Sequence record: NC_055781.1
Reading direction: 5' to 3' (one strand)
Origin: Escherichia phage p000v
DNA length: 64,000 nt
Shown: one piece after another, positions 10,700 through 43,151 of the stretch
Layout: every line of letters starts with the position of its first letter
How positions within the stretch are numbered: the first letter of the stretch is position 1
Position numbers and translations under genes: made by a program
Notes under the pieces: generated by a model
Told to the model about the DNA's origin: nothing
The model's database searches: none
The model's input: the letters and a program-made list of their open reading frames with translations, nothing else

Positions 10700-10728
10700 T
10701 TTACATACCACAAGGATTGTGGTACAAT
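10699..10728 (+). promoter_or_regulatory. T4-type early promoter upstream of rnlA
   Basis: GTTTAC 10699..10704 (overlaps denA stop), 17-bp spacer, TACAAT 10723..10728. Confidence 0.55.
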
Positions 10729-11882: not shown

Positions 11883-11912
11883 GTTTACAAACACCAAGGA
11901 TGGTGTTACTAT
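11883..11912 (+). promoter_or_regulatory. T4-type early promoter upstream of alc
   Basis: GTTTAC 11883..11888, 17-bp spacer, TACTAT 11907..11912, leader CAACAACACGAGGAGAAAA. Confidence 0.6.
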
Positions 11913-13289: not shown

Positions 13290-13318
13290 TTTACAAACTC
13301 TCAGGAGCAGAGTATAAT
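13289..13318 (+). promoter_or_regulatory. T4-type early promoter
   Basis: GTTTAC 13289..13294, 17-bp spacer, TATAAT 13313..13318. Confidence 0.6.
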
Positions 13319-15412: not shown

Positions 15413-15442
15413 GTTTACAACATGGTGGAGTTGTGATACTAT
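15413..15442 (+). promoter_or_regulatory. T4-type early promoter
   Basis: GTTTAC 15413..15418, 17-bp spacer, TGTGA-TACTAT 15437..15442, leader CAACAAATGAGGAAA. Confidence 0.6.
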
Positions 15443-25852: not shown

Positions 25853-25881
25853 TTTACAAGCACATGGATGTGTGATACTAT
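25852..25881 (+). promoter_or_regulatory. T4-type early promoter
   Basis: GTTTAC 25852..25857 (overlaps alt stop), 17-bp spacer, TGTGA-TACTAT 25876..25881, leader CAACAACATGAGGAAAA. Confidence 0.6.
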
Positions 25882-39841: not shown

Positions 39842-39872
39842 AAAAAAAAAAGGGACCTTACGGTCCCTTTTT
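39842..39872. terminator. Bidirectional intrinsic terminator between convergent rnlB and gene 24
   Basis: A9-GGGACC-TTAC-GGTCCC-T5: perfect hairpin flanked by A-run and T-run. Confidence 0.7.
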
Positions 39873-39875
39873 AGT

Positions 39876-41159
39876 TTATTCATCTATAATAATTTTAGGC
39901 AATTTAACACCGAGTAAAACAGACAAGTCTGAACGTCCTGCCATTTTATCCATGTCCCCGCCATCAATTACTCTCGCTTCTTTTTCATCTTTTGCTACTG
40001 TGTAAGGATTTGCTGATAAAGCATATCTAACCAATAAACCTATAGACGGTTGTAAGCTTTCCGGATCAACTACAACTTTAAATGCACCGACATGTTCCGG
40101 GTCGTCTAAATCCATTCCTTCAGTGTATGGAGCATAAAAGATGGACCCTACAATCTCTTTTTCGCCGATATTTTCTACAACACCCACAATAACATAATCT
40201 AACGGACTGTTGGTATCGCAGTAAAGAGGTAATCCATTTGCCAAGAATCCATAAGCATTTTGTGAAAGATACTTGTCATCTTCTGGCTTATGTTTTAACC
40301 AACCAGAAGCAGCAAGAATAGCAGCTGCACGAGCTGAAGCTACGCAAAACGTTGCAGTATAAGTTGACTCTTTTTGGATATGCGAAACCATTTCACACAC
40401 CATTCGATATAACGAACGACCTGCTTCCGGAGCGGATGCATAGCTCAAGTCAATAAATCCGGTGTCAGTAATTCCAGTAACTTTATAACGTTTCGATACA
40501 GTAATTAAAGACTGAAGAATATCTTTATTAATTTCATCAGCCATTTCAGTAGCAAGCAAATCTTCTAAGAAGTTAGGGGCATCAAATCCATTCGCTTCCA
40601 AATCTTGCGCTAATTCAACCGTGAGGCCGGTTTTAAGTTTACGAGATTTGACTGAAGTTTGCCATTTATTAATCTGGAATCTTGCATCAGAAATTTCGCT
40701 ACCAGAGCTTTCAAATTTGCTTGTTACCGCTGCATCTGAAAATAACCGTACCTTTAAATGAACGACCGCAATCTGAAGAGCTAATTCTAGATCACTTTCC
40801 TGAATATCTGCAAACGGTGTATCTTCTAACACTTTATAGACTATATTATTATATTTGAAAAAATCACCTTTATTTAGTGTGGCTTTTGATTCTTCTGTGA
40901 GCTCGGTAATTTTTTCTCGGTCTACATATCCAGCTTCACCTGCATAAGTAGCACCAGTTTTAAATGTTAATTCGTTGTCTGGGTTAAGATATTTAATACC
41001 ATAAAAAGCAGCAACAGGTTGATTAGTTCTTTGTGTTGCCACAATGTCAGAATATATTAATTTAGTCGTAGCGCGAGTCAAAGCAACGAGATTTGGGCGA
41101 CCGATTGAGTTGCTAGTAGACGTTGTAGATTCACGCAATAATTTTTGGATTTTACTCAT
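39876..41159 (-). CDS. 24: Capsid vertex protein gp24
   Basis: 427 aa (T4 gp24 length); paralogous to gp23 fold; T4 order. Confidence 0.9.
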   Translation of the reverse strand: MSKIQKLLRESTTSTSNSIGRPNLVALTRATTKLIYSDIVATQRTNQPVAAFYGIKYLNPDNELTFKTGATYAGEAGYVDREKITELTEESKATLNKGDFFKYNNIVYKVLEDTPFADIQESDLELALQIAVVHLKVRLFSDAAVTSKFESSGSEISDARFQINKWQTSVKSRKLKTGLTVELAQDLEANGFDAPNFLEDLLATEMADEINKDILQSLITVSKRYKVTGITDTGFIDLSYASAPEAGRSLYRMVCEMVSHIQKESTYTATFCVASARAAAILAASGWLKHKPEDDKYLSQNAYGFLANGLPLYCDTNSPLDYVIVGVVENIGEKEIVGSIFYAPYTEGMDLDDPEHVGAFKVVVDPESLQPSIGLLVRYALSANPYTVAKDEKEARVIDGGDMDKMAGRSDLSVLLGVKLPKIIIDE

Positions 41160-41185
41160 TGCATTTTTCCTTATGTGATATAGAT

Positions 41186-41193
41186 TATTTATA
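41186..41193 (-). promoter_or_regulatory. T4-type late promoter for gene 24
   Basis: + strand TATTTATA = - strand TATAAATA, 27 nt upstream of gp24 start. Confidence 0.55.
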
Positions 41194-41199
41194 AAGATT

Positions 41200-41229
41200 G
41201 TTTACAACGTATTTGGTATGTGATACTAT
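41200..41229 (+). promoter_or_regulatory. T4-type early promoter, back-to-back with the gene 24 late promoter
   Basis: GTTTAC 41200..41205, 17-bp spacer, TGTGA-TACTAT 41224..41229, leader CAACTACAGAGGAGTAAACAAAATG. Confidence 0.6.
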
Positions 41230-41259
41230 AGACTTATCAACTACAGAGGAGTAAACAAA

Positions 41260-41529
41260 ATGACTAAAGCACGTTTCTTAAGAGATACTTTAAAAGTTCT
41301 AGAAGCTGAAGAAGTTAAGTTAGTAGAAAAATATGGTGCAAAAGTTAACGGTAATGCCTTCAACAAAGTATGGATGAAAGTTGATTCTGAAGCTCGAGCT
41401 AAAGGTTATTGGGCCACTGATAAACTTGCATCATTCAAAAACAAAGACGGTTCTCCGGCATATGTCCAAGAAGGTATGCCTAATTGGCAAAATATTTTGA
41501 AAACTTACATCGAAATTGCACAGAAATAA
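41260..41529 (+). CDS. Hypothetical early protein inserted antisense between capsid genes 23 and 24
   Basis: 89-aa ORF with early promoter, RBS GAGGAG and downstream hairpin; no motif recognised. Confidence 0.5.
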   Translation: MTKARFLRDTLKVLEAEEVKLVEKYGAKVNGNAFNKVWMKVDSEARAKGYWATDKLASFKNKDGSPAYVQEGMPNWQNILKTYIEIAQK

Positions 41530-41533
41530 AACC

Positions 41534-41558
41534 AAAAAATGGGAGACCGAAGTCTCCC
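41534..41558 (-). terminator. Intrinsic terminator of gene 23 (hairpin shared with the + strand ORF)
   Basis: GGGAGAC-CGAA-GTCTCCC; on - strand followed by U-run (+ strand AAAAAA at 41534..41539). Confidence 0.6.
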
Positions 41559-41582
41559 AAAATAAGATTTAATCAATTAAGA

Positions 41583-43151
41583 TTAGATGCCTTTTACATA
41601 TACACGGCGGAAGTAAGCGTTCTTACCAAGGCTGTTCAGGATAGACGGCATACCGGACTGGATGCGAGCACCTGGAGCCTGCAGGGAACTTTCAGCAAAC
41701 GGGTTAACACCGATACCGTAACGAGTTTTAAAGCCCATTACCGGCTGGAAGTTCTTAGGATCGGAACCACGCAGTGGGGTAAGTGCAACGTAAGGAGCAT
41801 AGTAAATACCTGCATCCATTTCGTTAGCGCCTTTGTAACCAACGGTGAAGTAATCCTGTTTAGCATACTGGTCGATGTATACGCGGTATTTACCACCAAG
41901 TACACCGGCAAATACAGACTTAGTAGTGTCGGTATTAAAACCAGAAGCCAGACCCTGTGCAGCGTAAGAAATACCAGTATCAACTGAAGCCAGTACGTTA
42001 ACTACGTTACGGGAAGCGATAATGAAGTTACCTTCACCACGGCCGGTTTGACGAGCAATTTCAACTGCTTCTTTATCAATCTGGAACAATAGAGATTTAA
42101 AGCTTTCACCGGCCCAACGAGCACCACGGATATCAATCGGGTCCTGGAAGTCAAATACACCAGCTTTAGAACCCGGAGTCAGGGTCATACCAGATTTACC
42201 AACCTGTGCTGAGTAGTTAATCCAATCAACAACTTCACGGTTGATTTCTAGCATAATTTCTGTAGCCAGAATACCGCTCAGTTCAGCATCAGCATCCATA
42301 CCGTGTACTGCACGGAGGTCTTGTGCTAATTCGATAGAGTAAGCAGCTTTCAGCTGGCGAGATTTAGCTTCGATAACTTGTTTATCGATACGGAAGCCCA
42401 TTTCATTCCATGGGTTATCGGTAGAACCGTTGAAACCTTCCTGGAGTTCAGCGATAGAAGTAGCCATACCTTCAGCGATTTCTACCAGTGCACCAGCTTC
42501 CATTTGTTTCTTAACTTCTGCATCTAATTTAGCAGCATCAGTTGCACCGGCATCGATTGTTACTTGAACAGAAGCTTGCAGATATACAGTACCAGTTTCC
42601 TGGAAGAAGTGAGTATAGATATCACCTACTGTGGTTTGTGTGCTAGCAGCCAGAGCTGGGAATTTCTTAGCAGCACCCTGACCAGAGAACATTGCATCCG
42701 GAGCATACATCGGATGGAAAGCTTCTTTAGCGCCAGCAGCGATAGGGTCTTTACCATATACTGCACGGAGAGCAAATACCTGACCGGTCGGGCTGTTCAT
42801 AGGCTGAACACCACAAATATCAAAAGCGATCAGATTAGGAATAGCACGACGAACCATACCCATAACTGCAGGCCCAATTTGGGTTACTGCACCAGAGGTT
42901 TGACCTGCTGCGATGTTCTGAGCATTATAACCATGGTCACCACCAATTTCAGCTTCGGTCAAGAAAGAACCAAATGCCTGAGCGATTTTCTCGTCTTTAT
43001 ATTCAGGGGATACTTCGAAATCTTTTTCCTGGTTTTCGAAGATTTTAGCGATAATAGCCTGCTTGCTATTAGCGATTTCCGGCAGGCCTTCACCTTCCAG
43101 CAGTTCTTTCCATTTGTCTACGAGCTGAGCTTTAGTTTTGATAGTAGTCAT
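41583..43151 (-). CDS. 23: Major capsid protein gp23
   Basis: 522 aa; MTTIKTKAQLVDKWKELLEGEGLPEIANSKQAIIAKIFENQEKDFEVSPEYKDEKIAQAFGSFLTEAEIGGDHGYNA... matches T4 gp23 including the propeptide region. Confidence 0.95.
   Translation of the reverse strand: MTTIKTKAQLVDKWKELLEGEGLPEIANSKQAIIAKIFENQEKDFEVSPEYKDEKIAQAFGSFLTEAEIGGDHGYNAQNIAAGQTSGAVTQIGPAVMGMVRRAIPNLIAFDICGVQPMNSPTGQVFALRAVYGKDPIAAGAKEAFHPMYAPDAMFSGQGAAKKFPALAASTQTTVGDIYTHFFQETGTVYLQASVQVTIDAGATDAAKLDAEVKKQMEAGALVEIAEGMATSIAELQEGFNGSTDNPWNEMGFRIDKQVIEAKSRQLKAAYSIELAQDLRAVHGMDADAELSGILATEIMLEINREVVDWINYSAQVGKSGMTLTPGSKAGVFDFQDPIDIRGARWAGESFKSLLFQIDKEAVEIARQTGRGEGNFIIASRNVVNVLASVDTGISYAAQGLASGFNTDTTKSVFAGVLGGKYRVYIDQYAKQDYFTVGYKGANEMDAGIYYAPYVALTPLRGSDPKNFQPVMGFKTRYGIGVNPFAESSLQAPGARIQSGMPSILNSLGKNAYFRRVYVKGI

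Follow-up and report, generated by a model that had tools for sequence, protein, structure and literature searches.

A small conserved gene with an early-type promoter lies antisense between the late capsid genes 24 and 23 of the Mosigvirus-like phage p000v

Why should a small gene with an early-type promoter of its own lie, in opposite orientation, between two late capsid genes of a T-even phage, and what kind of gene is it? The question is raised by a stretch of 64,000 nucleotides (nt) of Escherichia phage p000v (NC_055781.1), referred to here as the window and numbered from its first nucleotide, in which an open reading frame (ORF) of 89 codons on the plus strand separates gene 24 from gene 23, both on the minus strand. 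The evidence presented below makes it likely that this ORF belongs to a self-contained early accessory cassette, set between the gene-24 late promoter and the gene-23 terminator, which encodes a dispensable, selected factor and is one allele of a polymorphic slot exchanged between phage genera. The initial annotation of this DNA had described an early-promoter cassette with an antisense ORF at the 23/24 junction, a promoter placed back-to-back with the gene-24 late promoter and 6 bp away from it, and an ORF that ends at the gene-23 terminator hairpin. Every one of these elements was found where it had been placed; the spacing of the promoters is exact and 10 nt separate the stop codon of the ORF from the hairpin. 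The features to which we refer are as follows.

41260..41529, plus strand: 89-amino-acid accessory gene, subfamily A of the RB69ORF188c / PHROG 6003 family (profile match, ratio of non-synonymous to synonymous substitution [dN/dS], codon score)
41200..41229, plus strand: predicted T-even early (sigma-70) promoter, consisting of G, TTTACA, a 17-nt spacer, TGa and TACTAT
41246-41251, plus strand: Shine-Dalgarno sequence GAGGAG, 8 nt before the ATG of the ORF
41193->41186, minus strand: predicted gene-24 late promoter TATAAATA, an exact T4 late-promoter octamer
41540-41559, minus strand: gene-23 intrinsic terminator TGGGAGAC-CGAA-GTCTCCCA, with an 8-bp stem, a UUCG loop and U6
41186-41559, early cassette on the plus strand: cassette region between genes 24 and 23, including the late promoter and the hairpin
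39876..41159, minus strand: gene 24, head vertex protein gp24, a 427-amino-acid ORF and the left flank of the slot
41583..43151, minus strand: gene 23, major capsid protein gp23, a 522-amino-acid ORF and the right flank of the slot

The ORF is a genuine coding gene under purifying selection. Its codon usage scores 0.56 bits per codon in frame and is negative in the other five frames, while the long genes of the window score 0.37 +/- 0.09. In three comparisons with homologues that are 61-69% identical, 70-79% of the synonymous sites differ versus 22-24% of the non-synonymous sites; dN/dS could be computed for one of these comparisons, at 0.146, the other two being saturated at synonymous sites. 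The protein matches PHROG 6003 over its full length (E = 1.1e-44, residues 1-89 versus profile positions 1-90), and GenBank annotates the same gene as similar to RB69ORF188c. At 90% identity or more the ORF is present in 119 phage records, all of them Mosigvirus-like coliphages or Shigella phages, with 118 of the 119 at 95% or more. It had been proposed that the ORF should be discounted if it had no conserved relative and no coding signal; homologues were found, and the codon usage fits the frame of the ORF itself.

RB69, the type phage of the genus, and phage mogra have only a broken copy of the gene, which is therefore dispensable in the laboratory. In the RB69 reference (NC_004928, positions 2292-2532 of our extract L017), and likewise in mogra, it is split into two fragments, ORF188c and ORF189c. 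The RB69ORF188c/189c family is the same gene, 96-99% identical in 118 of the 119 matching Mosigvirus records, with position and orientation unchanged, split in RB69 and intact in the window. This breakage, together with the lack of a known domain in the protein, is what one might expect if the ORF were spurious or a decaying remnant caught between two genes. The data on selection and conservation already contradict such a view. Of the 119 Mosigvirus records, 116 have a match that spans at least 80% of the ORF, synonymous differences far exceed non-synonymous ones in all three comparisons, the protein is conserved to about 30% identity across phage subfamilies, and its AlphaFold model is confident. 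We regard decay or spurious annotation as extremely improbable. Literature searches for the names RB69ORF188c and 189c found no paper and no published function. The gene is an already annotated "hypothetical protein" and belongs to a known kind, the ORFan cassettes of T-even phages that are transcribed independently.

Word-indexed and exhaustive profile searches extended the family to small phage proteins of 83-93 amino acids, at identities that fall to about 30%, and in total some 226 phage records match it. Two subfamilies can be distinguished. Subfamily A contains the window protein and those of loci L002 and L004, and subfamily B those of the Dhakavirus phages AnYang and JS98, the Gaprivervirus phages VR20 and VR7, locus L005 and the Tequatrovirus phage HZ_ZJUN4. 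Members of one subfamily share 56-69% identity, whereas A and B share 28-37%. All members of the family that were inspected in T4-like phages (Mosigvirus, Dhakavirus, Gaprivervirus, one Tequatrovirus and metagenomic relatives) lie at the 23/24 junction in the same orientation. Distant members are found among arrays of small same-strand ORFs in Acinetobacter phage ABPH49 (Vequintavirinae) and in two metagenomic contigs. A scan of IMG/VR with the family alignment returned no match. A 655-amino-acid metagenomic protein with cytochrome-b5-like repeats (P0013; WT.EKLA.YNGKNGQPAYIAVNG) aligned with profile residues 40-70 at E = 1.5e-5 summed over five repeats; we judged this to be probably a chance or low-complexity match, inflated by the repeats, and rejected it. 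In one source the 90-amino-acid member P0006 (L002, 5001-5273) carries the label "NADPH-dependent curcumin reductase CurA", an evident annotation error.

Is the ORF preceded by an early promoter? T-even early promoters form a class with UP, -35, TGn and -10 elements (PMC2988021, PMC4122927), for which the consensus TTTACW-N17-TAYWAT has been published from T4 and PST (PMC4122927). Positions 41200-41229 present all the sequence features of this class, namely GTTTACA (G41200; TTTACA at 41201-41206), a 17-nt spacer, a TGn extended -10 (TGa at 41221-41223) and a TAYWAT -10 (TACTAT at 41224-41229), and the 30 nt upstream are 83% A+T. The consensus occurs seven times in the window, always on the plus strand, as against 0.29 expected occurrences, and none of 100 shuffled sequences reached seven. 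A generic sigma-70 scan of the window, which is without power here, gave 6 sites versus 10.2 expected. All seven consensus sites are preceded by G, and in six of the seven the ATG of a plus-strand ORF with a Shine-Dalgarno sequence follows 28-31 nt after the -10. From reading its sequence, we take the ORF behind one of these six promoters to be RNA ligase 1. A separate observation is that five of the seven GTTTACW-N17-TAYWAT promoters (10700-10728, 11884-11912, 13290-13318, 15414-15442 and 25853-25881) contain a 5-8 bp inverted repeat within the 17-nt spacer, for example TACCACAA-gga-TTGTGGTA; the promoter at 41201 has no such repeat.

The same motif is found at the same position in L004, L005, AnYang, HZ_ZJUN4 and LF82-35, and upstream of segD in T4. 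In T4 (L016, NC_000866, 6734-6823) it reads TTTACA-N17-TGaTATTAT and lies 42 nt from the gene-24 ATG. A review from 2010 reported that no segD promoter had been found and assumed vanishingly low transcription (PMC2988022). Time-resolved omics of T4 place segD among the early RNAs and, with protein intensities that could be measured, among the middle proteins (PMC9697503, supplement files 4-6). An early-type promoter motif does stand before T4 segD, in agreement with the early RNA seen by omics, and this corrects the picture of the T4 locus. By analogy with segD, which has the same motif, we infer that the window promoter fires early, with a predicted transcription start near 41236.

The two boundaries of the cassette are elements of the flanking late genes. 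On the left is TATAAATA, with 26 nt between it and the gp24 ATG and exactly 6 bp between it and G41200. A T4 late promoter consists of this octamer placed some 6-7 nt before the point at which transcription of a late gene starts; the copy at 41193->41186 conforms to this definition and is predicted to be active. Most of the related loci compared, empty and occupied ones alike, keep it at the corresponding position. On the right, the gene-23 terminator hairpin is the boundary. Read from the minus strand it scores as a terminator (-17.3 kcal/mol for a folded 56-nt stretch). The same stem read from the plus strand (-13.5 kcal/mol for a 54-nt stretch) is followed by AAAAUAAG, with no U-tract, so that hairpin and U-tract, the marks of an intrinsic terminator, are present together for gene 23 and not for the ORF. 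The hairpin 20-mer is identical in L002, L004, L005, AnYang, HZ_ZJUN4, LF82-35, RB69 and the empty site of Serratia phage CBH8. An Rfam scan of 41000-41800 yielded sub-threshold noise only, at the hairpin.

This arrangement bears on what the transcripts may do to one another. Because the hairpin lacks a U-tract on the plus strand, early RNA probably continues antisense into gene 23. In the other direction, the ORF transcript had been described as antisense to read-through from gene 23. This stands for that part of the late RNA that passes the terminator between gene 23 and the ORF and for no other. One might then propose that the RNA itself is the product, in that the promoter sends an antisense "anti-late" RNA through gene 23 or occludes the gene-24 late promoter, the ORF being incidental. 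Such a role would accord with the likely read-through past a hairpin without a U-tract, with the distance of only 6 bp between early and late promoters and with the retention of the promoter whatever the cargo, be it ORF A, ORF B or segD. It does not account for the purifying selection on the ORF, for its phage-like codon usage and for the strong Shine-Dalgarno sequence before it. Moreover, family members also occur away from capsid genes, and most genera have no promoter at this junction. We therefore think it improbable that RNA is the purpose of the cassette, although a secondary RNA role may exist on top of that of the protein.

How the cassette came to be here can be approached by comparing the 23/24 junction of the window with that of 20 further loci. 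At least five distinct states of the slot were found, as follows.

Empty, 80-102 bp: the late-promoter region runs straight into the terminator hairpin (Tequatrovirus T4_ev240 and RB68, and representatives of Moonvirus, Karamvirus, Gelderlandvirus [S16], Jiaodavirus, Winklervirus and Pseudotevenvirus [RB43])
Promoter and ORF A: most Mosigvirus, L002 and L004
Promoter and ORF B: Dhakavirus, Gaprivervirus, L005 and one Tequatrovirus
Promoter, ORF B and a segD-like endonuclease gene: Mosigvirus LF82-35
Promoter and segD only: T4 and Gelderlandvirus CGG4-1
A different, 475-amino-acid annotated homing endonuclease, antisense to the capsid genes: Acinetobacter phage Kimel (L021), 974-2401

Occupied and empty sites differ by exactly the cassette. 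The empty site of Serratia phage CBH8, ...tatttataaag|cca|tagaaacaagaatgggagaccgaagtctccca, is made up of the two ends of an occupied site joined together. The comparison bears out the earlier suggestion that the junction is a recurrent insertion hotspot with changing cargo, and the presence of segD at this junction in T4 was confirmed, both on the T4 locus and in the literature (PMC2988022). The further idea that the window cargo takes the place of segD needs to be qualified: the cargo is indeed a different one, yet the 89-amino-acid family is no one-off and, with its roughly 226 matching phage records, is the commonest occupant. The usual tenant of the slot is the small ORF and not segD, and in some Mosigvirus genomes a segD-like endonuclease gene adjoins it. 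Kimel is a Twarogvirinae phage, and the endonuclease at its junction indicates that the slot is used well outside the Tevenvirinae.

Two other junctions deserve mention in their own right. In Krischvirus KFS-EC (L022, 1746-2482) the 23/24 gap of 737 bp has a different filling, in which TATAAATA occurs twice and is accompanied by an additional hairpin and by two tiny ORFs annotated on the same strand. In Salmonella phage S16 (L015, 2405-2500) the empty junction keeps a -35-like remnant, ttgttttaca, between late promoter and terminator. This remnant, together with the TTT AGA variant of gene 23 described below and an identity with CGG4-1 over 20 codons, suggests that S16 may have lost the cassette by secondary deletion from a CGG4-1-like, endonuclease-bearing ancestor.

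The relatedness of the ORFs does not follow that of the genes around them. L002 and VR20 have gp24 proteins that are 92% identical, yet the ORF A of the former and the ORF B of the latter share only 29%, so that ORF subfamily and gp24 relatedness are incongruent. The gp24 and gp23 proteins of the window are about 95-96% identical to those of Tequatrovirus. Nucleotide identity between Mosigvirus and Tequatrovirus is only 61% genome-wide (bioRxiv 10.64898/2026.09.14.751387), and capsid genes that are nearly identical within genomes so far apart imply that long homology arms flank the slot. Phage LF82-35 provides the clearest instance of exchange, one in which both ends of a swap can be mapped. 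When it is aligned with the window in steps of 100 nt, gene 24 is 83-100% identical, mostly 96% or more, and the 800 nt of gene 23 that adjoin the slot are 98-100% identical, with 83-100% further in. LF82-35 equals the window through the promoter as far as GAGGAG, continues with an ORF B of the Dhakavirus type and carries a segD-like gene 3 nt later. The left switch thus falls at the Shine-Dalgarno sequence GAGGAG and the right switch inside the last ~10 codons of gene 23. With its two ends mapped between near-invariant capsid genes, this swap amounts to a natural experiment in gene exchange.

The position of the left switch recalls the PeSL cassettes, in which crossovers occur between the -10 and the start codon (Arbiol 2010, PMC2839356). 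The likeness to PeSL/ORFan cassettes (PMC2839356; PMC4122927) comprises the early-promoter consensus, a variable ORFan bounded by a stem-loop and that interval of crossover, and the replacement boundaries expected of such cassettes are found both in the crossover of LF82-35 against the window and in the comparison of empty with occupied sites. We do not count the cassette as a PeSL, since the stem-loop that should precede the promoter, and by which PeSLs are defined, is missing; the single stem-loop here comes after the ORF, and directly upstream of the window promoter there is instead the gene-24 late promoter. Furthermore, the window cassette sits inside a conserved late structural module, whereas PeSL cassettes are located in a hyperplastic region, and exchange here might require no more than the long stretches of near-identical capsid gene on either side. 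A second comparison is with the morons of lambdoid phages, which are likewise extra genes, independently transcribed from a promoter of their own, with a terminator-like boundary, and set between genes that belong to a different transcription class. The cassette differs from these in belonging to a virulent phage, in its predicted expression at an early stage of the lytic cycle and not from a prophage, and in its orientation opposed to that of the flanking genes.

The T4 segD locus is the closest parallel. It shares the slot, the antisense orientation, the flanking late promoter, the gene-23 terminator and TTTACA-N17-TGnTAYWAT at the same distance (PMC2988022). The T4 cargo is a 223-amino-acid free-standing GIY-YIG endonuclease, unrelated in sequence to the window protein. 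The latter has no Pfam nuclease match and the family profile finds only proteins of 83-93 amino acids, so it does not belong with SegD or the GIY-YIG enzymes. Might the ORF nevertheless encode a functional partner of the segD-type endonuclease, such as a helper, an immunity factor or a regulator? In LF82-35 the ORF B and the segD-like gene stand 3 nt apart behind one promoter, and both kinds of cargo use the same slot. Against a partnership, the junction carries no endonuclease in the window or in any other examined ORF-bearing locus except LF82-35, T4 and CGG4-1 have the endonuclease without the ORF, and the distant members occur in arrays with no recorded nuclease domains. We consider a partnership very improbable.

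A different kind of link with the endonuclease is suggested by the codons at the end of gene 23, where one further feature has to be listed.

41604..41615, minus strand: gene-23 codons TAC TTC CGC CGT (Y-F-R-R near the C-terminus), a candidate endonuclease target site

The window has the TTC CGC form (41607-41612). TAC TTT AGA is found in all three loci that bear a segD-type endonuclease (T4, LF82-35 and CGG4-1, from three genera), and TAC TTC CGY in 18 of the 19 examined loci without one, the window included. The only exception is S16, an empty site with TTT AGA that is identical to CGG4-1 over the 20 codons compared. The protein at the end of gene 23, AYFRRVYVKGI, is unchanged, yet 8 of the last 9 sense codons in LF82-35 are not those of the window. 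The association of signature and endonuclease corresponds to a hypergeometric count of 4/1330, in which phylogeny is ignored. Such a pattern would be expected if the endonuclease recognized the 3' end of gene 23 and if synonymous changes shielded the genomes that carry the enzyme. The target of SegD was listed as unknown in the 2010 review (PMC2988022), and the synonymous-codon signature in gene 23 offers a candidate target site for SegD-type endonucleases. A more ambitious proposal can be built on this, in which SegD-type enzymes cut gene-23 ends of the TAC TTC CGY form, TAC TTT AGA protects, repair drags the cassette across genera and the basic 89-amino-acid protein, with its unmatched fold, is the cargo under selection, a new factor in counter-defense or competition between phages. 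Taken in full, we find this proposal doubtful.

What might the protein do? It has a mass of 10.2 kDa and an isoelectric point (pI) of 9.5, is hydrophilic and contains no cysteine; no signal peptide or membrane segment is apparent from its sequence. All 13 family members examined are basic (pI 8.0-9.9). AlphaFold2, supplied with 13 sequences, produced a model with a mean predicted local distance difference test score (pLDDT) of 91.9 and a predicted template-modeling (TM) score of 0.77, superseding a first run with 6 close sequences (pLDDT 63.8). The model has an α-α-β-β-α order: helix 3-25, helix 31-48, a beta hairpin formed by 52-60 and 66-70, and helix 76-88. The invariant residues are M1, K3, F6, G31, N32, N35 and Q70. 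In the model, G31, N32 and N35 cluster at the loop between helices 1 and 2 and the start of helix 2, and Q70 ends the beta hairpin.

Comparisons with known proteins and folds yielded little. Pfam DUF4859 (E = 0.0025) fell below its own cut-off and was rejected, and the other Pfam matches were sub-threshold as well. PADLOC gave no match for the window protein, a sequence search of the PDB nothing below E = 2.4 and Foldseek against the PDB nothing below E = 0.75. In BFVD the only protein with a matching fold was one unnamed viral protein of 88 amino acids (TM score 0.88, 30% identity), evidently a member of the same family. No likeness to defense or anti-defense proteins was seen in Pfam, PADLOC, the PDB or the fold libraries, no dedicated anti-defense library having been searched.

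These results bear on the proposal that the protein is an anti-defense or host-takeover effector, acting early to inhibit an immune system or an essential host process. The architecture of the early promoter fits such a role. The gene is small, variable, dispensable and patchy in distribution, with two divergent alleles, as is typical of counter-defense genes, and arrays of small ORFs on one strand surround its distant members, which come from a Vequintavirinae phage and from two unclassified metagenomic contigs. The lack of likeness to any characterized protein or fold (Pfam, PADLOC, PDB and fold libraries) counts against it, as does the fact that most T-even genera do without the gene. An effector of this kind is a real possibility, if on present evidence a rather unlikely one.

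As a whole, these results are most readily accommodated by the early accessory cassette described at the outset, for which we propose the following sequence of events. Right after infection, the host sigma-70 RNA polymerase would fire the GTTTACA/TGn/TACTAT promoter, starting near 41236, and a 24-nt leader with GAGGAG would ensure efficient translation of the basic 10-kDa protein. The RNA would pass the stable hairpin without a U-tract and would either be stabilized there or run on as an untranslated antisense RNA into gene 23. Later, the late machinery would use TATAAATA to transcribe gene 24, and gene-23 mRNA would stop at the same hairpin, so that the early and late programs would share 400 bp and be separated in time. 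The protein would be an accessory factor that most likely binds a host or nucleic-acid target, as its size, its conserved basic charge and its early-gene context, which are all that point this way, would suggest. Finally, homologous recombination within the near-identical capsid genes and within shared regulatory motifs would pass alleles of the slot from one T-even genus to another, and gene conversion driven by segD-type homing endonucleases that use the same slot and promoter would probably contribute.

Several points weigh against this scheme. Early transcription in Mosigvirus and the position of the start site are read from the motif and from the likeness to T4 segD. The protein has no informative relative in sequence or structure, so that the binding-factor mechanism is pure conjecture. 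The part assigned to endonucleases draws on three endonuclease-bearing loci and a codon signature. Lastly, the only published screen of Mosigvirus early proteins, from phage AV110, selected its candidates by homology to T4 early genes (bioRxiv 10.64898/2026.09.14.751387); since T4 is without this gene, the screen could not include it.

The window DNA is about 99% identical to Mosigvirus (RB69/JS09-like T-even) phages, the best match being Shigella phage SHSML-52-1. The late head genes gp24 and gp23, followed by gp22, gp21 and others, occupy its minus strand, and its plus strand carries rnlB and homologues of 24.2/24.3. The window gp24 is 95-100% identical to the annotated gp24 of Mosigvirus and Tequatrovirus, and its gp23 is 96% identical to that of T4. 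A hairpin with an 11-bp stem at 39847-39872, between rnlB (plus) and gene 24 (minus), has a terminator score on both strands and appears to be a shared bidirectional terminator of these two genes. Gaprivervirus-like and Gelderlandvirus genomes (L002, L005, L014, L015 and L027) have two tandem gp24 paralogues, each about 56-70% identical to the gp24 of the window.

What do these findings mean for the T-even phages? Neither the cassette nor the slot nor the codon signature amounts to a new kind of system. Screens of early proteins that proceed by homology to T4 miss this gene by design. It offers a cleanly delimited and probably strongly expressed early protein with an unmatched fold, carried by more than 200 sequenced coliphages, candidates for phage therapy among them.

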